From positions 1 through 47,713 of IMG/VR virus record IMGVR_UViG_3300037692_000179: a stretch of DNA of 47,713 bases, one strand, 5' to 3'. Position numbers and translations under genes: made by a program. This document shows, in pieces, positions 22,259 through 34,608 of the stretch. The notes below the pieces were generated by a model. That model was not told the DNA's origin, searched no databases, and saw nothing but the letters and a program-made list of their open reading frames with translations. Origin of the DNA: a virus. Its lineage: Duplodnaviria > Caudoviricetes. Each line of letters starts with the position of its first letter. The first letter of the stretch is position 1.

Positions 22259-22690
22259 ATGGCAAAACCTGAAGCCCAAGCCCAAGAGCAAGCCCAAGAG
22301 CAAGCCCCGGCTACGGAGACCGAAGAGTCCAAGCGCACCAAGAAGCTCTCCAAAACCTACACCGGCTCCGTTGTCACCATCACTGAGTCCAGCACCGACA
22401 AAACCCTGGTCTTCGACATCTCCACCCTGTCGTCCGAGATTCAGGAAAACCTCAAGATGCACGGTGCGATCCAGAAGCTCGGCGACGCCGCCTCCGGCAA
22501 ATCCGGCCAAGACGCAGTCGACGCAATCCAGACTGTCTGGGACGGCCTGGTAGCCGGCAACTGGACCGTGCGCGCACCGGCGACTCCCAAGGTCACCAAG
22601 TCCGACATCAAGAACAACCTCGAGAACCTTTCCGCAGATGACAAGGCTGCCGCACAGGCCCTGCTCGAGAAGCTCGGCATCAAGCTGTAA
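22259..22690 (+). CDS. Probably highly expressed hypothetical protein, paralogue of 14448-14918
   Basis: TAAGGAGG RBS; own terminator; HGAIQKLGDAA motif. Confidence 0.85.
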   Translation: MAKPEAQAQEQAQEQAPATETEESKRTKKLSKTYTGSVVTITESSTDKTLVFDISTLSSEIQENLKMHGAIQKLGDAASGKSGQDAVDAIQTVWDGLVAGNWTVRAPATPKVTKSDIKNNLENLSADDKAAAQALLEKLGIKL

Positions 22691-22724: not shown

Positions 22725-22769
22725 GCTCCAGGGGTCACCAAGCATCTCTCCGGCCCCTGGAGCTTTTTT
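22725..22769 (+). terminator. Rho-independent terminator
   Basis: GCTCCAGGGG...CCCCTGGAGC-TTTTTT. Confidence 0.8.
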
Positions 22770-22830: not shown

Positions 22831-22962
22831 GCCTAACGACAAGCTAACGGGCTTGCGGCCCAGGAGGTAGACAGATGCAACCATGGCAAAAAGACCCGCT
22901 TGGAATTGACAAGTCAAAAACCACAGATGGGAGCAAGTCCGCCGTTGAGCGACTTGTTAAGC
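22831..22962 (-). repeat. attC site 1
   Basis: Minus strand reads GCTTAAC-aagtc-GCTCAACG...CGTTAGC-ttgtc-GTTAGGC, with the canonical extra base in L''. Confidence 0.85.
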
Positions 22963-23162
22963 CGCTGACCCCCTGCAATGCCCAATATTATGCGATTTTG
23001 CGCGAAGCCGATGGAAACGAGGAGAGTATTACCCTGGAGCAAAACTTGGAAGCCCCCTGGGGGGACCATTACCGCGTGGATGTGTCGCTGATGCGGTGGC
23101 GCACAAAAGATAAGCTTGCTGCCTATCTCCGGCAGATCGCTGCCGTGATTGAGGCGGCTTAA
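22875..23162 (+). CDS. Cassette 1 ORF (95 aa); starts inside attC1
   Basis: AGGAGG RBS and ATG lie within the attC loop; the TAA stop is in the next core site. Confidence 0.7.
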   Translation: MQPWQKDPLGIDKSKTTDGSKSAVERLVKPLTPCNAQYYAILREADGNEESITLEQNLEAPWGDHYRVDVSLMRWRTKDKLAAYLRQIAAVIEAA

Positions 23163-23324
23163 CAGCCACTGATAACCGGTGACGGAATACAGAAAGGGGA
23201 TTGACGAAATGATGCCAGATGAAATTTGCGATAGGTGTGACGTTGGGACTTGCGGCGAATGTCCGTATTACGGTGACCGGGCATGCACTGCCGGTTCGCC
23301 ATCCGCTGCACTGGATGGTTAGAT
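23157..23324 (-). repeat. attC site 2 (long, degenerate)
   Basis: GCTTAAC...CCGCTGCAC-tggatg-GTTAGAT; arms are imperfectly matched. Confidence 0.6.
23209..23322 (+). CDS. 37-aa Cys-rich peptide encoded wholly within attC2
   Basis: AAAGGGGA RBS; MMPDEICDRCDVGTCGECPYYGDRACTAGSPSAALDG; TAG stop lies in GTTAG. Confidence 0.5.
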   Translation: MMPDEICDRCDVGTCGECPYYGDRACTAGSPSAALDG

Positions 23325-23348
23325 GGATATTTTTCGACGGAGGGCCGA

Positions 23349-23582
23349 ATGGTTGTTTATCACGTATGTTCATACAAAAAATTGCAACGATACCTGAAAA
23401 CCGGATCAATAACGCCGCCAGTAAGGGCATGGGAAAATATCGAACAGGCCGAGCGAATGAGTAAAAGTACAGGACGTAGACTTATCTTGCGACTGAAATT
23501 TCCCAATAATGCTGAAAAGCTTGAAGGGCATTTCAATCAGGCTCGCGTGTTGCACCAACCTTACAAAATGGATGCCATATAA
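23349..23582 (+). CDS. Cassette 2 ORF (77 aa)
   Basis: GGAGG RBS; MVVYHVCS...; TAA in core site. Confidence 0.7.
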   Translation: MVVYHVCSYKKLQRYLKTGSITPPVRAWENIEQAERMSKSTGRRLILRLKFPNNAEKLEGHFNQARVLHQPYKMDAI

Positions 23583-23682
23583 CGAATAGCGATCAGTGGC
23601 GGCGACGGGACCGCCCAACGAGTGGGCACATTTCGACCTAGCACCCATGTATCACCCGTCCGGGTTCATGCTGGTGTTAGCA
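23577..23682 (-). repeat. attC site 3
   Basis: ATATAAC...GACGGG/CCCGTC...GTTAGCA. Confidence 0.65.
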
Positions 23683-23695
23683 CGGTGAGGCAACT

Positions 23696-24019
23696 ATGGA
23701 TTACTGGAGAGAGTGTATTGAGATTGCCCTTGATGAATGCGGACTGAATGCCACCGACGAGCAGGTAACGTATCTCGTTGATGCCGTCAAAGGTGGACAC
23801 GAAAATTACGGGATGGCCCACGGATACGATTGCGTCCCTGAGCCATCAGAAACTCAAGCCAAGCGCGAGTTGGCCGAGATGAAACGGCAGGCAAGGCAGC
23901 GCGAAGAGTGGAAGCTCTCTACGAAGCCGTGCCGAGCCTGCACAACCACCGGCAGTGTGCGCGATGTATGGGGCCGGGATATGACGTGCCCTGATTGTAA
24001 CGGCAAGGGCCGCGTTTGA
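23696..24019 (+). CDS. Cassette 3 ORF: C-terminal DnaJ-type CxxCxGxG zinc finger
   Basis: CRACTTTG...CPDCNGKG; GAGG RBS. Confidence 0.75.
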   Translation: MDYWRECIEIALDECGLNATDEQVTYLVDAVKGGHENYGMAHGYDCVPEPSETQAKRELAEMKRQARQREEWKLSTKPCRACTTTGSVRDVWGRDMTCPDCNGKGRV

Positions 24020-24020
24020 G

Positions 24021-24126
24021 TGCTAACGTATCTAGCTAAACGGCGACGGGACGACAACACCGTTTAGCAGACTGCTTTCGAGAACCCTCGCTGTATGTTT
24101 CGTCCAATTTCAGCGTTTTGTTATGA
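24021..24126 (-). repeat. attC site 4
   Basis: TGCTAAC..GCTAAACGG...CAATTTCAGC-gtttt-GTTATGA. Confidence 0.7.
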
Positions 24127-24139
24127 GGCATAATCACTT

Positions 24140-24334
24140 ATGGCCGAGGACTACGGGATTGAATATTATCTGAGTGCAGAAGACGAGAGATACCCAACGC
24201 TAGTTTTGCAGAGCGATGATTTTGGAGTTGTTGGGTATTCACTTGATAAATCTACAGGACATCTTCGCAGGGTGTGTATTTGCTCTGCCCATTCTGAGGC
24301 TGAATGCTGCTGCGGCGCATGGGATGCCTTATAA
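24140..24334 (+). CDS. Cassette 4 ORF (64 aa, Cys-rich C-terminus)
   Basis: CICSAHSEAECCCG; TAA in core site. Confidence 0.65.
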   Translation: MAEDYGIEYYLSAEDERYPTLVLQSDDFGVVGYSLDKSTGHLRRVCICSAHSEAECCCGAWDAL

Positions 24335-24413
24335 CGACCAAGATAACCGGCTGCGCTGTGCATCTGGTAAGACAGCGGCTGTTTAACCAGTCCGGTTGAT
24401 TTTATGGTTAGGA
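24329..24413 (-). repeat. attC site 5
   Basis: ATAACCGGCTG pairs with CAGtCCGGTTgAT, leaving the canonical extrahelical G and T on the + strand. Confidence 0.85.
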
Positions 24414-24421
24414 GCAAACAG

Positions 24422-24613
24422 ATGCAGATACCTGTGAACATAGCAAAACTAGCCATTAAAGAGACGCGCCACCCAGGATGCGCTGGGTACGCGATTGACA
24501 CACCGAACGGCACAGAATACGACTGCGCCTATGACACGGTGATAACCTGCGACGAATGCAAATACTGCGTTGGGAGAAAAGACCCTTCCGCAAAACGCAA
24601 CAAGGCACCCTAA
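24422..24613 (+). CDS. Cassette 5 ORF (63 aa, Cys-rich)
   Basis: AGGAG RBS overlaps the GTTAGGA core; CDECKYC; TAA in core site. Confidence 0.7.
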   Translation: MQIPVNIAKLAIKETRHPGCAGYAIDTPNGTEYDCAYDTVITCDECKYCVGRKDPSAKRNKAP

Positions 24614-24709
24614 CGACCCATGGTCTGCGGGCAGGGGCTTTTGATTCGCGTTGCTGCCATTTTCCTAGCCGCTGCCGAGGTGGGCTGTCCGCTAACCCGA
24701 TTGTTATCT
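24608..24709 (-). repeat. attC site 6
   Basis: CCCTAAC..GGTCTGCGGGCAG / CTGTCCGCTAACC..GTTATCT. Confidence 0.7.
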
Positions 24710-24720
24710 CTGGGGGTGCT

Positions 24721-25014
24721 ATGTTTATTGAGGAAATAAAATTATTAAAAGACAAAGCCTTCAGACTAGAAGAAAAAATCAAATTTCTGGAGGAAGTGGA
24801 ATATTGTCTTCGATACGCAGGGCTGACTGGTGTGGTACATGGTGATGCGTCACTAGAGGACTGGAGAGGGTTTGACTTTGATTTATATGAAAAAGAAGTT
24901 GGTTATCCGCTCCAGTTGAAATGGGATAGGAGGTGGATTGGGTTCCCAGAATTATCAGAATATGACCACATGAAAGACAAAATACTGCCGCAATTTTATG
25001 ATTTTAAGAGATAA
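24721..25014 (+). CDS. Cassette 6 ORF (97 aa, AT-rich)
   Basis: GGGGGTG RBS; MFIEEIKLL...; TAA in core site. Confidence 0.7.
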   Translation: MFIEEIKLLKDKAFRLEEKIKFLEEVEYCLRYAGLTGVVHGDASLEDWRGFDFDLYEKEVGYPLQLKWDRRWIGFPELSEYDHMKDKILPQFYDFKR

Positions 25015-25082
25015 CCAAAGAATATGCCGACAGTGCAAGATCTAAAAATAATAATTTGCGCGCTTGCAGCGGTTGGTTAAAT
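25009..25082 (-). repeat. attC site 7 (short; L boxes mismatched)
   Basis: AGATAAC...GCTTGCAGC-ggttg-GTTAAAT. Confidence 0.6.
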
Positions 25083-25096
25083 TACGGAGGTCGAAA

Positions 25097-25288
25097 ATGG
25101 GATTTTTGAGTCGGAGCATCAAAACAGCCGTGAAACTTCCCTTTGCCATGGCGTGGGACTGTATCAGCCTCGGCAATATGGGAGAGGGCACAAGCACAGG
25201 GAAAGTGATTGCGGAGCACCAAGCCGAAAAACAGATAGACGACTGTTTGGAAGTGGTGAAAAAGCTGAAAGATGCTGGAGTAATTTAA
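25097..25288 (+). CDS. Cassette 7 ORF (63 aa)
   Basis: GGAGG RBS; MGFLSRSIK...; TAA in core site. Confidence 0.7.
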   Translation: MGFLSRSIKTAVKLPFAMAWDCISLGNMGEGTSTGKVIAEHQAEKQIDDCLEVVKKLKDAGVI

Positions 25289-25386
25289 CGTCGCCGGTCA
25301 GCGGTTGCACTGAGACGACCGAGAAGCACGGACCTTTTCGGCCTAGCACCGCTGTTGAACAGTCCGCTGGAGTGGTCTTGTTATGT
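25283..25386 (-). repeat. attC site 8
   Basis: GTCAGCGGTTG / CAGtCCGCTGgAG with extrahelical bases; ends GTTATGT. Confidence 0.8.
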
Positions 25387-25565
25387 CAAACTGTGGAGAC
25401 TGTGAGCATATCGGAAAACACGCTTGGGGTTTGCTTCATAACGAAAAAAGCTGCCTCAAAATAAGAGAAAGACAATCTGATTTTGATAGAGGCGCTAAAA
25501 TGTCACGTGCAGAAGCAACTGACATTTTTAGATTCAGGCCCACTGATGGGGTTTTCCCCATTTAG
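25383..25565 (+). CDS. Cassette 8 ORF (60 aa; possibly frameshifted)
   Basis: ATG lies inside the GTTATG core; GGAG RBS in the L box; CGDC motif. Confidence 0.5.
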   Translation: MSNCGDCEHIGKHAWGLLHNEKSCLKIRERQSDFDRGAKMSRAEATDIFRFRPTDGVFPI

Positions 25566-25664
25566 CGATGTTGAAAAGTGTCGGTATTTTTCAAAGGCAT
25601 AACATAGGGGTACCATGCTCCACCAACCCCACAGTCCGCGACTTAAAAAGGAGGACGTAACCAA

Positions 25665-26621
25665 ATGCCAGAACCCACCAGTACTTCTCCCACCGAGCTA
25701 CGGCTCGACAACACGAAGCGATCCTGCTTCAACACCTGCCGACGAAAGTTCTACTGGCAACACATCCGAGGCCTCAAGCCCGAGTTCGGCTCCACTGCAC
25801 TCCGCTTCGGAACCACCTGGCACGGTGCCCTCGAAGGCTTCTACTCCCACATCAAGGAACATGGCTGGTCCGAGGATGGTAAGGCAATCCATGCAGCCTG
25901 TGACCTCGCCAAGAAAGAGTGGGACAAGGAAACCTCGAAGCAAAACTTCGCGACTGACTACCGTACCTTCGAGCAGTGCATGACCATGTTCCTCCAATAC
26001 ACAAACCACTACGTTGGAGACAAAGGACTCCTCAAAGTTATCGAGACCGAACAAGTCTTCGCGTACAAGATGGAGCTCGACGAGTTCCTCCACGAAGACA
26101 TCCTCTTCCCATACCTCGTAGACACCAACCTCTTCTTCACCGGCAAGATCGACCTCCAAGTCATGTTGTCCGGAATCCGCTGGATGGTCGAGCACAAGAC
26201 AACCTCCCAAAGCCTTTCCACCCAGGTCCTTCGCCTGCACCGTACTCCGCAGATCAAGGGTTACTGCTGGGCCAGTGACAAAGTCCACGACTTCCCTGTC
26301 GAAGGTTGCCTAGTCTCCTTCGCCCATTGCACATCCAGGAAAAGTCCCAAGACAGACGAGTATGGTAAGGTAACAATGGACTTTGCTCGCACTCCACAGA
26401 TCTTCTCCGAAGCCGACCTCGAGCAGTGGCGCATTTCATTCCTCTCCACCGCAAACGAAGTCGCCCACGAGATGCAACGAAACCTCTGGCCCATGTGCGA
26501 AGACTCCTGCTACAACTACGGCCCCTGTGCTTACTCCATGCTGTGCGAGCAAAACGTCCCTATCGACAGCGTAAACACAGCTGGCTACATTTACGATCCT
26601 TGGGATGTGGAGGCGGAGTAA
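25665..26621 (+). CDS. PD-(D/E)XK exonuclease (Cas4/RecB-like, Fe-S Cys)
   Basis: FNTCRRKFY, FGTTWH, TGKID..VEHKT, Q..GY, and C-terminal C..C..C. Confidence 0.88.
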   Translation: MPEPTSTSPTELRLDNTKRSCFNTCRRKFYWQHIRGLKPEFGSTALRFGTTWHGALEGFYSHIKEHGWSEDGKAIHAACDLAKKEWDKETSKQNFATDYRTFEQCMTMFLQYTNHYVGDKGLLKVIETEQVFAYKMELDEFLHEDILFPYLVDTNLFFTGKIDLQVMLSGIRWMVEHKTTSQSLSTQVLRLHRTPQIKGYCWASDKVHDFPVEGCLVSFAHCTSRKSPKTDEYGKVTMDFARTPQIFSEADLEQWRISFLSTANEVAHEMQRNLWPMCEDSCYNYGPCAYSMLCEQNVPIDSVNTAGYIYDPWDVEAE

Positions 26622-28089: not shown

Positions 28090-28827
28090 ATGCCTAATGC
28101 AAAAGACATTTCCCCGGAACTTCAAGACTACAAAGTCTTCGTCTGTGGGGACTCCGGAACAGGAAAAAGCATCTTCGCTTCCACCTTCCCAACACCAGGT
28201 TTCGTCTTCGACTTCGACAAGGGGATCGACTCTTACCGCGGAAAAGACTTCGACTACGAGCAGTTCGACCTCTCACCTCAAGGCTGGGTCCAATTCGAGA
28301 AAACCCTTATGACCCTCGAAAAGGAGTTAAAGGAAGACTGCCGATACAAGACAATCATCATCGACTCCACCACAGTCATGACCGACCTTGCAATGGAACG
28401 CTCCATGCAGCTCGACCCAAAGCGCAGCGCAACCAACGGCCCTCTCTGGAATGTCCACTACCAGATGGTCAAGAACCTCGTCGAAGGGAAGCTCCGCAAG
28501 ATCATCAACCTCCCATGCAACATCGTAGTAATCGCACATCTCGAGAACATCACCAACCAGGAAACTGGTGCTCTCATAGGCATCGAACCGCTTCTCACCG
28601 GCAACCTCTCGAAGCGTGTTCCCGGCTACTTTTCGGAGGTCTACTATGCGAACGTAAAGCAGAAGGACGGCAAGAACCAATACCTCATGCAGACAGTCAA
28701 CAAGGGATTCTACAAAGCCCGCTCCAGAATGCGCGGTGTCGAGGACTACCTCGAAGACTACGTCCCGAATGACTACAACAAGATCATGGAAATGCTGGGA
28801 AAAAACATCAAGAAAGGAGGTAAATAA
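28090..28827 (+). CDS. Phage AAA NTP-binding protein (Sak4-like recombinase)
   Basis: GDSGTGKS, FDFDKG, TIIIDS, VVIAH. Confidence 0.85.
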   Translation: MPNAKDISPELQDYKVFVCGDSGTGKSIFASTFPTPGFVFDFDKGIDSYRGKDFDYEQFDLSPQGWVQFEKTLMTLEKELKEDCRYKTIIIDSTTVMTDLAMERSMQLDPKRSATNGPLWNVHYQMVKNLVEGKLRKIINLPCNIVVIAHLENITNQETGALIGIEPLLTGNLSKRVPGYFSEVYYANVKQKDGKNQYLMQTVNKGFYKARSRMRGVEDYLEDYVPNDYNKIMEMLGKNIKKGGK

Positions 28828-30285: not shown

Positions 30286-30545
30286 CAGACAACGTCGACC
30301 TTGGCCCCTTCGACCTCGTCTGCACAGCACAGGCTAAAGTCGAATGGCTTTCCGACGAGGATGACCTCGACAAGCTCGCAATGCGTGAGATGTTCCAGGC
30401 CCACCTCGACAAACTCGCACGGCAGTTCCAGGTAATAATGGCCCACAAAATCAAGACTGCCCTAACCCAATCCCACCGCTGTGTCGAAGACTCCTCCTTC
30501 GGTGCACTCCACAAAGGAGCAAAAGATGGAATCCCAGACCTTTGA
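30282..30545 (+). CDS. Hypothetical protein
   Basis: GGAGG RBS; overlaps both neighbours. Confidence 0.6.
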   Translation: MTDNVDLGPFDLVCTAQAKVEWLSDEDDLDKLAMREMFQAHLDKLARQFQVIMAHKIKTALTQSHRCVEDSSFGALHKGAKDGIPDL

Positions 30546-31857
30546 AGACGACCTCCAGAGCAAGTGTCTCCTGATCGACCCAAGCAAAATCACGGTCCGG
30601 GATTCCCTTCCAAGGTACAGAAAAGACCTCGGCTCCCTTGAAGACCTCGCAAAGTCCATCCGCGAGAAGGGACAAATCCAGCCAGTCCTCATCAACAAAG
30701 ACTACGAACTCATCGCCGGAGGTCGCAGACTCGCCGCATGTCTCCTCGGCGGTCTCCAAGTCAAGGTTGTCTTCTCCGACTCCATCGACGACCTCACCAT
30801 GCGCGAGCTCGAAGTCGAAGAAAACGTCCAGCGTAAACCCTTCACACCAGCTGAGGAAGTCCTCGCAGTCGACGAGCTCCACAAGCTCAAGCAAGCCAAG
30901 TACGGGACATCCGCCCCAGGTAGAATCGGCGGCTGGGGCTTGGACAAAACCGCAGAGATTATCGGCAAAACACGATCCGCTGTCGTCGACGACATTAAGC
31001 TTGCCGAAGCAGTCCGCATGTTCCCGGAGCTCTCCGAGGCCAAGACAAAACAGGAAATCCGCAAAGCAGTCCGGACCATGGAGGACCTGAACAAGCGCTC
31101 CATCGCTTCAGTCGAATACGACAAGGTCATGGAGAAAACCAAGCTCCCAATCTCCTTCGACCTTTGCAAAGCCGAAGAACAAATGCCGCTCATCCCAGAC
31201 AACTCCATCGACATCCTCCTCACAGACCCACCTTACGGCATGGATGTCTTCAACAACTCCAGTACCTTCCTATCCAAGACTTTCGGCAACGCCGGATTCA
31301 AGTACGACGACGACAAAGACAAGGCCCTCGTCCTCTACCAACTCCTCGCCAAGGAAAGTTTTCGCTTCTGCAAAGAAACCTCCCACGCCTATGTCTTCTG
31401 TTGCCCTGAACACTTCGACCGCATCCGCTCCTACTTCCTTGCAGCCGGCTGGCTCTGCCATATCCGCCCCATGATCTGGATCAAAAAGTCCTCCGGTCAG
31501 AACAACGCACCTTTCCACTGGCCAAGTTCCTGCTACGAAATGATCCTCTACGCGAGGAGAAAAGACTCAGTCCTTATCAAACCAGGACTTGCCGACTGGG
31601 TCCAGCATCCTCCTGTCTCCGACACCGAGAGAGTCCACCAGGCACAAAAACCAGTCGTCCTTCTTCGGGACCTTATCTCCCGCAGCGTCTACCCCAACAG
31701 CATCCTCTACGATCCCTTCTGCGGTTCCGCAGCTACCCTCGAGGCCGGCCTTGAAGAACGCCTTGTAGTCAAGGGATGCGAGATGTTGAAGGAAGCCTAC
31801 GACGCTGGACGAACACAGATCATCAAATACCAGCAAAGAAAGGACGGGAAGGAATGA
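30526..31857 (+). CDS. ParB/Spo0J-like CTPase + HTH fused to a beta-class N6A/N4C DNA methyltransferase
   Basis: LAKSIREKGQIQPV, IAGGRRL, EENVQRK; HTH LDKTAEIIGKTRSAV; TDPPY; H..QKP; DPFCGS. Confidence 0.9.
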   Translation: MESQTFEDDLQSKCLLIDPSKITVRDSLPRYRKDLGSLEDLAKSIREKGQIQPVLINKDYELIAGGRRLAACLLGGLQVKVVFSDSIDDLTMRELEVEENVQRKPFTPAEEVLAVDELHKLKQAKYGTSAPGRIGGWGLDKTAEIIGKTRSAVVDDIKLAEAVRMFPELSEAKTKQEIRKAVRTMEDLNKRSIASVEYDKVMEKTKLPISFDLCKAEEQMPLIPDNSIDILLTDPPYGMDVFNNSSTFLSKTFGNAGFKYDDDKDKALVLYQLLAKESFRFCKETSHAYVFCCPEHFDRIRSYFLAAGWLCHIRPMIWIKKSSGQNNAPFHWPSSCYEMILYARRKDSVLIKPGLADWVQHPPVSDTERVHQAQKPVVLLRDLISRSVYPNSILYDPFCGSAATLEAGLEERLVVKGCEMLKEAYDAGRTQIIKYQQRKDGKE

Positions 31858-32154: not shown

Positions 32155-34608
32155 ATGCAGCTCAACACAGTTGGCCCGACAGGTGCCAAGATTATGCTCC
32201 TCGGAGAGTACCCCAGCCCAGACGACATGAGGGCCGGAGTTCCCTTCACCTCTTGGCAAGGGCGTCTTCTCGACGGTATCCTCCGCAACGCAGGCATCTC
32301 CCGCTACGAGTGCATCCAAAGCTTCGTCGCCAGAGAGTTCCCGCCCGGCGGTAACATCTCCCTCATGTTCAAGGACAAAGCCAGGACCCAGCCGAACGAT
32401 ACGCTACGCCTCTGGCTCTCCAATCTCAAAGCAGACATAGAGAAGTTCAAGCCAAACATCGTCGTCTGCATGGGGTCATTTGCTCTCTGGGCGATGAAGG
32501 GAACCTGGAGGATGAAGGACTACAGAGGGTATGTCGTCGAAAGCTCCATTGTCCCGGAGCAAAAGATCCTCACAACGGAGAGTATGTTTACTGTAAACAA
32601 AGACTACGAGCTCTCCTTCCCTGTCATCATGGACTTCAAGAAGGTACGAAAGCACTGTGAGTTCCGGGAAATCCCTGGAGATCAAAAGGTCATAGTCTCC
32701 GATGCCACCCTATCCGAGTTCCTTGACTACTGCGACTTCCTTTGCAACGACCCAGCCGTAGTCCACATCTCCGCTGACATTGAAACATCCCAGCCGAACA
32801 ACCATATAAACAGGATGGGGCTAAGCCATGATCCGACCTTCGGCCTTTCGTTCGAGTTCCTCCGTGGACATTTTCCAGCCCTTCCCCAGCGCGACGAAGT
32901 TGCTGCTTGGACTGCTCTTGCCAAAGTCCTTACATCCGAAAAAGGTAAGGTATTCCAAAATGCACCTTACGACGTCCCAGTCCTATGGCGTAACAATGGT
33001 ATCCTTACTCACCCGCTATGGATGGATACACTTATCGCAGCCCACTGCCTCTGGCCGGAGTCAAAGAGAGACCTCGGATTCCTCGCATCCATCTGCCTCG
33101 ACACCGAGCCGTGGAAGCACACATCCAGTGAGACACCTGGTTACTATAACGGGGCTGACGCAGCAAATACTTTGGCTATTGCTTATGTTCTCAATCAGGA
33201 AATTGACAAGTTCGGCGTCAGGGATATCTTCAACCACGAGATGAGGCAAATCCCTGCCGCAAGTTTCCTCCAACTTCAGGGTGTCAAGATCAACACGGAG
33301 ACACAGAAAAAGCTTATCGCAAAAAGTGCCTCCCTTGCAGCCGAGGCAAAGAAGTCCCTCGACTCCCTCATCGGCAAGGACGTAAACTACAACTCCACAA
33401 AGCAACTCGCACAGCTTCTCTACATCGACCTTGGACTCCCAACCCAATACAAGCGACGCAAGAAAGCCTCCGACCCACGCTCCGTAACTACCGATGCAGA
33501 AGCACTTAACAAACTCGCCAGAGAAAACCCACACCCAATCTTAGAACTCCTTTTATCTTACAGAAAATGGACGAAGCAAAGCCAAGCACTCGGAAAACCA
33601 GTCTCCCCTAAAGGCCGCTACCATACTTCTTACAACATCGCCTGGCGTCAGAAAGACGAGAAAGGTAAAATTGTCGAAGAAGAGAGCGGCACGGAAACCG
33701 GGCGCTGGTCAAGCTCTGCAAGCATAATAGAACCCTACGGCCCTGGGAACCTCCAGAACCAGAATAAGTTCGCCAGGGAGATGTACGAACCCGACGAAGG
33801 ATGTGTGTTGCTTCAAGCTGACTATGTCCAAGCCGAAGCTGTCGTCGTCGCGTATCTTACTGGGGATCGCAAGCTCAAAGACATCTTCAGAAACAAAGAA
33901 GACCTGCATTGCTACACAGCCTCCACGATGTTCGGAGTCCCTGTGGAATCCATCTCCAAGGAATCCCATGAGCGTCGTGTAGGAAAGACTCTCCGTCACG
34001 CAACGAACTACTCCGCCGGCCCAGCAGTCGTCGCCAAGGCCCTTGACATCCGTATCACCGAGGCAAAACGTCTCCTCGAGATGTACCTTTCCGTTAACCC
34101 TCTCCTCCTCGTCTGGCATAACAGGGTAAAGAGAAAGCTCGAGCAAGACAGAATCATCATAACTCCAATGGGACGCAAGCGTAAGTTCCTAGGTCGCTGG
34201 GATGACTCTCTTTTCCGCAGCGCCTACGCATTCGAGCCACAGTCTACTGTCGGAGACCTCCTCAACGCCTCCATGGTAGACCTCTACGAAAAGTACGGAG
34301 ACATCATCAACCTGTGGATGCAGCTCCACGATGCCATCTACACGACACCACAGGACAACCATGACTCAGTCAAATTCACAATGGAGAAAAAACTCGAGTG
34401 TATGATCCGGGAGCTTGATGTCGAGGGAGACAAGATGATTATTGATGTTGACTTCTCCGTCGGACGCAACTGGAAAGATATGTCAGATGCGAGACTAAAA
34501 GACGGTGTAGTAGAAGTAAAGACTAAGACCGGCACCAACGAAGACAACAAACCCATTTTTTCTTGGGTCCACTACGACCAGTGGTCCAGTGATACAAAAC
34601 TTAAATAG
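32155..34608 (+). CDS. polA: Family A DNA polymerase with an N-terminal UDG-like domain and 3'-5' exonuclease
   Basis: GP.GAKIMLLGE.P (UDG-like); ADIET, NAPYD, YNGAD (exonuclease); TGRWSS, NLQN, DYVQAE, R..K...NY, LHDA (polymerase). Confidence 0.93.
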   Translation: MQLNTVGPTGAKIMLLGEYPSPDDMRAGVPFTSWQGRLLDGILRNAGISRYECIQSFVAREFPPGGNISLMFKDKARTQPNDTLRLWLSNLKADIEKFKPNIVVCMGSFALWAMKGTWRMKDYRGYVVESSIVPEQKILTTESMFTVNKDYELSFPVIMDFKKVRKHCEFREIPGDQKVIVSDATLSEFLDYCDFLCNDPAVVHISADIETSQPNNHINRMGLSHDPTFGLSFEFLRGHFPALPQRDEVAAWTALAKVLTSEKGKVFQNAPYDVPVLWRNNGILTHPLWMDTLIAAHCLWPESKRDLGFLASICLDTEPWKHTSSETPGYYNGADAANTLAIAYVLNQEIDKFGVRDIFNHEMRQIPAASFLQLQGVKINTETQKKLIAKSASLAAEAKKSLDSLIGKDVNYNSTKQLAQLLYIDLGLPTQYKRRKKASDPRSVTTDAEALNKLARENPHPILELLLSYRKWTKQSQALGKPVSPKGRYHTSYNIAWRQKDEKGKIVEEESGTETGRWSSSASIIEPYGPGNLQNQNKFAREMYEPDEGCVLLQADYVQAEAVVVAYLTGDRKLKDIFRNKEDLHCYTASTMFGVPVESISKESHERRVGKTLRHATNYSAGPAVVAKALDIRITEAKRLLEMYLSVNPLLLVWHNRVKRKLEQDRIIITPMGRKRKFLGRWDDSLFRSAYAFEPQSTVGDLLNASMVDLYEKYGDIINLWMQLHDAIYTTPQDNHDSVKFTMEKKLECMIRELDVEGDKMIIDVDFSVGRNWKDMSDARLKDGVVEVKTKTGTNEDNKPIFSWVHYDQWSSDTKLK

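Follow-up and report, generated by a model that had tools for sequence, protein, structure and literature searches.

Phage arrays of attC sites and the array of the present virus record

Clusters of attC sites lacking an integron integrase gene (CALINs) have been reported from 17 phages, including TJE1, PH101, P12002L, and ctTUS972 in addition to 13 others (Qi et al. 2023, PMC9892861). The integrase IntI1 recombined five of the six phage attC sites tested; attC2 of PH101 recombined with IntI1, and top-strand frequencies were lower (PMC9892861). We analyzed a 47,713-bp stretch of DNA (the window, i.e., the complete stretch), which is the whole virus record IMGVR_UViG_3300037692_000179 and has a completeness rating of 100%. 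This phage, which has no integrase, carries an array of eight cassettes whose genes are reversed, and the array was probably inserted by an integron integrase (IntI) acting in trans at a secondary GTT.

The array and the CALINs of Qi et al. are both attC clusters without intI, both lie in phages, and both hold small hypothetical open reading frames (ORFs). The array differs in having eight sites versus two to four in the listed cases, and it goes beyond them in that its cargo was traced to cassette-free phage genes and its insertion was located by synteny (PMC9892861). Phage CALINs as such have thus already been published. ORFs opposite to attC go unmentioned in the text of Qi et al., whose figures or annotation files may show polarity (PMC9892861), and reversed ORFs are likewise unmentioned in the available text of PMC13323075, PMC13676570, and bioRxiv 10.1101/2022.02.06.479319. 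A search of open PubMed Central and bioRxiv, with subscription journals outside its scope, found no paper on reversed phage cassettes.

Bacterial CALINs and sedentary integrons (PMC4889954, PMC5371416) share with the array the anatomy of attC (R'', a 5-nt spacer, L'' with an extra base, L', and R'), whereas the array departs from them in its reversed ORF polarity, its short cassettes, and its ORFs that may begin inside attC. In the inverted-integrase integrons of Treponema and others (Cury et al. 2016, PMC4889954), intI lies on the strand of the cassette ORFs, as it does in the intI-bearing phage arrays described below. However, intI of those integrons is on the attC strand, whereas the phage arrays keep the normal opposition of intI and attC and have flipped ORFs instead. 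IntI also inserts cassettes at bare GWT (attG) sites outside integrons, which may seed small CALINs (bioRxiv 10.1101/2022.09.11.507474). Such attG insertions (SALINs) have been shown for single cassettes in bacterial chromosomes (same source); the end site of the phage array fits GWT, and the CRGM motif of attG hot spots is missing, by eye, from its right half.

An integrase-less array of eight attC sites

A preliminary description, made from the sequence alone, had proposed eight imperfect inverted repeats bounded by TAAC and GTTA. All eight are present and alternate with small ORFs, and there is a ninth core, a lone TAAC at 25600 without a GTTA partner. On the coding strand, a cassette unit would consist of an attC site followed by an ORF and measure 274 to 444 bp. 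The R'' and R' cores are inverted repeats at all eight sites. The extended complementarity that the description had noticed between the two cores around each ORF was borne out: 35 of 48 positions matched over the 6 nt beyond GTTA, compared with 11 of 48 for the partner that each core faces within the array, and random re-pairing of the cores attained 35 in 2 of 200,000 permutations. The background, estimated from 95 GTTA/TAAC pairs located 150 to 450 nt apart elsewhere in the genome, averaged 1.6 of 6. The block also lacks the C-skew of its flanks, as had been observed (GC skew of +0.10 to +0.17 at 23001-25500 versus -0.16 to -0.33), and third-position C amounts to 0.12 to 0.40 in the eight cassette ORFs versus 0.32 to 0.52 in nine core genes. 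GC skew within the attC sites themselves is mixed (-0.04 to +0.20) and was left out of the argument.

A custom covariance model was trained on 48 attC sites from prokaryote genomes, which a heuristic scorer had picked from 86 candidates, and no sequence of the phage window was included. Used for the kind of check that the preliminary description had suggested, the model matched four of the eight sites, i.e., attC5 (51 bits), attC1 (34 bits), attC4 (30 bits), and attC8 (25 bits; overall range, 24.8 to 51.1 bits), and failed at sites 2, 3, 6, and 7. No model match in the rest of the 47.7-kb genome exceeded 12.8 bits. The claimed absence of an integrase held in each search: a six-frame search of the genome for tyrosine recombinases (PF00589) gave 0 candidates, with a positive control in 14 of 14 genomes; Pfam and PHROGs scans of 70 ORFs detected no integrase; and tblastn of a phage IntI query against the phage genome had a best E value of 7.7. 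When the array was compared with 50,697 phage records by blastn, two short chance-level matches appeared, and comparison with the collected loci gave none; a scan of viral sequences for the attC1 arm found 0.

By the criteria tested, the array is a CALIN, as had been proposed. At least two same-strand attC sites lie within 4 kb (the four model matches, all on the minus strand), and the intI gene of a complete integron is missing according to both PF00589 and tblastn. Of the anatomy of attC sites, the L'' box with an extra base, 5 to 6 nt after R'' and complementary to L', is represented by seven minus-strand motifs, and it is weak at sites 6 and 7.

Reversed polarity of the cassettes

The preliminary description overlooked the polarity of the array: the attC sites are oriented minus and the main ORFs plus, and the genes are thus backwards relative to bacterial cassettes. 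In addition to the model matches, the signature consisting of TAAC, 5 to 6 nt, and L'' with the extra base occurs seven times on the minus strand of the array and never on the plus strand; in the other 44.9 kb, the same L'' signature was found twice on minus and four times on plus. Forced pairing of the arms favored minus at sites 1 to 5 and 8. Overall, minus polarity is resolved for six to seven of the eight sites. The ORFs of the array do not occupy the position of canonical cassette genes, i.e., on the attC top strand and upstream of their own R''. Minus polarity predicts that the array should begin on the left with a complete attC and finish on the right with a bare, hairpin-less core, as is observed. 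Because recombination uses the bottom strand of attC (PMC8946536), the coding (+) strand of the window would be the recombinogenic "bottom" strand, and the crossover would fall at TAA|C, directly after the stop codon. Six ORFs terminate in the crossover TAA, the stop of c3 lies 5 nt earlier, and c8 is ambiguous. The features of the array and its borders are as follows.

22259..22690, +: core phage gene, 143 amino acids (aa), function unassigned, left neighbor of the array; in 78 distinct loci of relatives, its homologues lie directly before the nuclease
22725..22769, +: terminator-like hairpin (10-bp stem and six T) upstream of the array, from sequence
22831..22962, -: attC1, the last site in integron terms; predicted crossover 22836|22837; 34 bits
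22875..23162, +: ORF c1, 95 aa; first 28 residues encoded within attC1; terminates in the TAA of the next core
23157..23324, -: attC2, long and degenerate; 6.8 bits; arm score 12.1 on minus versus 10.2 on plus
23349..23582, +: ORF c2, 77 aa; predicted minimal ADP-ribosyltransferase-like fold, from homologues and a structure model
23577..23682, -: attC3, degenerate; 8.4 bits; arm score 7.8 on minus versus 3.9 on plus
23696..24019, +: ORF c3, 107 aa; phrog_22300 (E 2.7e-20); C-terminal CxxC pairs
24021..24126, -: attC4; 29.9 bits
24140..24334, +: ORF c4, 64 aa; phrog_10039 (E 2e-5); its stop is the core TAA
24329..24413, -: attC5, nearest to bacterial sites; 51.1 bits on minus versus 8.0 on plus
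24422..24613, +: ORF c5, 63 aa; Cys-rich, no family found
24608..24709, -: attC6, degenerate; no full-length model match; arm score 5.4 on either strand
24721..25014, +: ORF c6, 97 aa; no family found
25009..25082, -: attC7, degenerate; L'' motif on minus, poor arm pairing; no model match
25097..25288, +: ORF c7, 63 aa; no family found
25283..25386, -: attC8; 24.8 bits
25383..25565, +: ORF c8, candidate, 60 aa; begins inside the R'' box
25483-25602, +: alternative c8 candidate, a 39-aa frame ending at the terminal core
25597..25664, -: bare, hairpin-less core, the attI-equivalent end; predicted crossover 25602|25603; no GTTA partner, no model match
25665..26621, +: core PD-(D/E)XK nuclease (PF12705, E 1e-16), right neighbor of the array

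The loop of attC1 contains the GGAGG and the ATG of c1. The bare core at 25597..25664 gave fold z scores of -0.35 and +1.07, and the nuclease leader follows it on the plus strand. The exact 60-aa sequence of c8 was absent from the protein collection. A terminator scan called 22748-22762, inside the upstream hairpin, at a chance-level total (5 found versus 4.7 expected), and a promoter scan was likewise at chance level (4 promoter-like sites versus 3.3 expected).

Reversed layout in other viral arrays

Pattern scans yielded 15 plus at least 125 viral loci and at least 122 loci from prokaryote genomes; with four additional intI loci, the viral set comprised 144. Of 109 distinct viral intervals between same-strand attC sites, which came from 43 of the 144 listed loci, 60 were reversed, 10 canonical, and 39 unclear. 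The 22 prokaryote intervals (in 14 of the 122 listed genome loci) included 2 reversed, 13 canonical, and 7 unclear cases, or 2, 16, and 18, respectively, among the loci listed when longer gaps were allowed. In these loci, the reversed layout dominates viral arrays but not bacterial ones. Reversed viral intervals had a median of 235 nt versus 469 nt for canonical bacterial intervals (among the loci listed). A long ORF on the reversed strand was present in 98 viral intervals of the listed loci. Its stop codon is the core TAA in 50 of them and lies earlier in 23; in the others, the ORF continues through the core, with AAC in frame in 23 cases and in other frames in 2.

The custom model oriented three of the published phage CALINs: PH101 and ctTUS972 are reversed with respect to their annotated genes (two of the three), and TJE1 is canonical. 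In PH101, attC2 reads on plus and the annotated genes lie on minus, and the tested top strand is the plus strand of the record. No match was obtained in P12002L, H188, or phage 3/49. Since PH101 is in culture and its IntI1-validated sites have this polarity, the idea that phages use integron integrases for accessory genes of their own is open to laboratory testing. Surveys that assign to each attC the ORF upstream of it would misassign reversed cassettes.

In five groups of viral loci (L164/L300, L297/L298, L299, L169, and L329), intI shares the strand of the ORFs and lies opposite to attC. The IntI of L164 exceeds the TIGR02249 cutoff (317 versus 265 bits), and genes for terminase, portal, or baseplate are present in L297, L299, and L300. 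Just before intI, attI-like repeated TAAC cores occur at L164:3100-3190, L297:2420-2485, and L299:930-995 and in L298. The intI of L169 (3475-4493) is split over two frames (83 aa and 278 aa), and the last cassette of this locus has a 10-nt core pair identical to that of cassette 1 of the window. In L160, L172, and L173, the same attC family stands in canonical polarity beside DNA methyltransferase genes, and both polarities are therefore present in viral records.

Insertion between two core phage genes

The genes flanking the array are near neighbors in relatives with 35 to 56% nuclease identity, of which 78 distinct loci contain both. The gap between them is 0 to 677 bp in 77 of the 78 (median, approximately 160 bp) and 2,257 bp in one, compared with 2,974 bp in the array-bearing phage. 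If the array is cut out at the predicted crossovers, 208 bp remain, which falls in the range of the relatives, and the model found no attC in the same gap in 97 relative loci. The array is an insertion between two normally adjacent core genes. The end site fits an attG-type GWT at the crossover and has no hairpin, although GWT is too short for diagnosis.

An array present at the nuclease locus throughout the family was also considered and was rejected: the gap is array-free in the 97 relative loci, and only L081 has an array, elsewhere in its genome. This close relative (54% nuclease identity) has a reversed attC array of its own, located approximately 4 kb downstream of the nuclease (L081:11300-12271); arrays are thus gained at more than one locus in this group of phages. 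In L087, the same intergenic gap contains a tRNA-like sequence (179-352, by eye), and the gap is suggested to be an insertion-tolerant locus. Locus searches with single proteins (the nuclease and c3) each returned one locus.

Cargo genes of apparent phage origin

At least two cargo genes (c2 and c3) appear, from their homologues, to stem from ordinary phage gene families. ORF c2 belongs to a very conserved viral family with 563 homologues, the best 120 of which are mostly 77 to 79 aa long with 74 to 96% identity. None of the 38 viral loci with c2 homologues (31 distinct genes) has attC, and only 1 of the 31 genes ends in TAA-C. With attC absent from all 38 loci, ordinary phage genes appear to be the material from which cassettes are made, and homologues of the same length make possible a before/after comparison of cassette creation. 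A homologue of c3 forms a reversed cassette in L347 and is an ordinary operon gene without attC in L427. P0174 shares with c1 the leader encoded by attC1, and beyond it the match is only weak. The traceable cargo thus seems to consist of phage genes, not bacterial ones.

We predict a minimal ADP-ribosyltransferase (ART)-like fold for c2, a lead at modest scores. Its structure model has a pLDDT of 89.5, and it resembles CC0527 (TM score, 0.72; E 0.2) and KptA (best Z score, 7.0; root mean square deviation, 2.6 over 72 residues). Most of the 50 matches listed in the fold search were ART, PARP, or Tpt1 folds, and Arr-ms was an Atlas lead (0.91). No significant sequence match to c2 was found in Pfam, PDB, or PHROGs. 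Compared with Tpt1/KptA, CC0527, and Arr, the predicted fold is similar, but c2 has only 77 aa and its Z score is below 8. PADLOC had no match for any of 10 cassette ORFs, and c6 had no usable Atlas match.

Mobility of the array and competing explanations

Capture is better supported than ongoing shuffling for this array. At the predicted circle junctions, the R boxes are paired in eight of eight cases, and the plus strand is more stable in seven of eight. For the class as a whole, mobility is indicated by an ORF that is 85% identical in L306 and L347, with similarity ending 4 nt past the crossover, and by attC sites with 93 to 95% identity that stand before unrelated ORFs in other viral loci. 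The degenerate sites 2, 3, 6, and 7, together with weak folding, suggest slow turnover. In metagenome run X1, the segment 23337-24022 assembles as a separate contig (depth of 21 versus 17) with alternative neighbors on both sides, and its right neighbor diverges at 24023-24028, in the core. The simplest reading of this contig is a second genome that shares c2-attC3-c3.

In the proposed mechanism, IntI from the host or from a co-infecting intI-bearing phage would act in trans and insert at a bare GTT of the intergenic region, as for attG sites (bioRxiv 10.1101/2022.09.11.507474). The cassettes may have arrived one by one or as one multicassette circle. Through the reversal, the cargo would remain codirectional with the phage early operon, as would intI in the arrays that have it.

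Several observations weigh against this mechanism or against the orientation on which it is built. Within the array, attC1, attC5, and attC8 fold like shuffled sequences (z scores of -0.3 to -1.2, plus strand), and the best structure leaves their R boxes unpaired. Excision or circle joints were unseen in the contigs of eight runs, contigs being a form of data that drops rare variants, and the left junction of the X1 variant, at 23337, lies off the crossover, 14 nt beyond where R'' ends. Four of the eight sites scored below 10 bits or were missed (6.8 bits at site 2, 8.4 bits at site 3, and no full-length match at sites 6 and 7), and the covariance model was not that of IntegronFinder. The arm score is tied at site 6 and slightly favors plus at site 7, and the orientation counts use a longest-ORF heuristic on loci that were found with motifs like those of the array. 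An empty allele of the exact locus was not found, and the end site lacks the repeated cores that precede intI in four phage loci.

These results divide the mechanistic part of the preliminary description, according to which the phage uses a host integrase in trans to acquire and shuffle accessory genes. IntI in trans survives as the most likely builder, but the host is one candidate source among others, since the same layout occurs in phages that have an intI of their own. Current shuffling is not supported: the contigs of eight runs gave neither an excision joint nor a sign of the cassette circles that had been suggested as a check, and attC1, attC5, and attC8 fold like shuffled sequences. 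The suggested comparison with relatives revealed the insertion of the array.

The weak folding, the four degenerate sites, and the lack of attI-like repeats would also fit a frozen remnant, i.e., a block that IntI cut elsewhere (e.g., in an intI-bearing phage), that was captured whole by homologous or illegitimate recombination, and that is now inactive; the Sak4-like gene of the phage and the off-crossover junction at 23337 point in the same direction. We consider such a capture unlikely, as the block begins and ends with a core and the composition changes at these same points, and the 208 bp left by excision at the predicted crossovers is a gap of ordinary size for relatives. Moreover, low-folding attC sites are known from sedentary integrons too (PMC5371416). 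Little credence is given to attC-derived sites being kept as translation or expression modules that are exchanged by homology and not by IntI. This would account for the GGAGG, ATG, and 28 c1 codons within attC1, for the leader common to P0174 before divergence, for the mini-ORF of attC2 and the c8 start in R'', and for near-identical attC sites before unrelated ORFs. However, the cores and the extra bases, which serve only IntI binding, are retained at six to seven of the eight sites, and intI accompanies such arrays in other phages.

A canonical array on the plus strand (ORF, then attC), captured via a host integrase, is very nearly dismissed. The ORFs of canonical cassettes often stop in the core TAA, as six ORFs do here, and the complementarity of the cores fits either polarity. 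This reading was rejected on the basis of the minus-strand model matches, the L'' motif, and the arm scores; the full attC on the left and bare core on the right also contradict it, as does the position of intI in intI-bearing phages, at the downstream end and on the ORF strand.

The reversed polarity also suggests a use of integron integrases by phages for accessory genes of their own, in a pool separate from that of bacteria. That phages run a reverse-polarity cassette pool made from ordinary phage genes, with the reversal as a firewall, is a tentative proposal, about which we are more doubtful than confident. An attC module, often with a ribosome-binding site and a start codon, would be joined upstream of a gene; IntI would then cross over at the stop of the gene itself (TAA plus C), and the last bases of the gene, copied in inverted form, would complete the site. 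As a firewall, the reversal would render bacterial cassettes antisense and silent in a phage array and phage cassettes silent behind the bacterial Pc. Many bacterial integron cassettes are anti-phage (bioRxiv 10.1101/2024.07.02.601686, 10.1101/2024.07.02.601719), and the origin of integron cassettes has been described as largely unknown (PMC5371416).

Phage genome and minor observations

A contig of run X1 circularizes the phage genome. Its gene content (Pfam and PHROGs) includes a P22-like portal, terminase, major capsid protein, family A DNA polymerase, ligase, a Sak4-like annealing protein (28090-28827), and the PD-(D/E)XK nuclease. The polymerase (32155-34608) has an N-terminal uracil-DNA-glycosylase-like domain (Pfam UDG, E 6.5e-12), and the gene at 30481-31857 encodes an N6/N4 DNA methyltransferase fused to a ParB-like domain. 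The phage sequence occurs in sediment and soil metagenome runs, four of which contain at least half of the sampled words, and none of the listed runs containing the phage is an RNA run. A host search with attC1 matched 0 of 301 genomes of the phylum of G007 at an E value of 1e-6; the G007 genome itself has only arm matches to attC1 of 23 to 31 nt.

Other contigs of the same sediment runs share the interiors of attC1 (22842-22961) and attC8 (25321-25374) but have different arms and neighbors, and one of them has a depth of 61. A 37-aa Cys-rich ORF with a ribosome-binding site (23209-23322, plus strand) lies wholly inside the loop of attC2 and stops in the R'' box. A 51,845-bp contig in the protein collection (P0001/P0172) encodes the same nuclease and several cassette proteins and could represent either a longer assembly or a variant carrying extra DNA. 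Finally, attC4 (24030-24070) and attC2 (23170-23300) contain internal repeats that are able to pair with L' instead of L'', which are perhaps traces of nested or chimeric sites.

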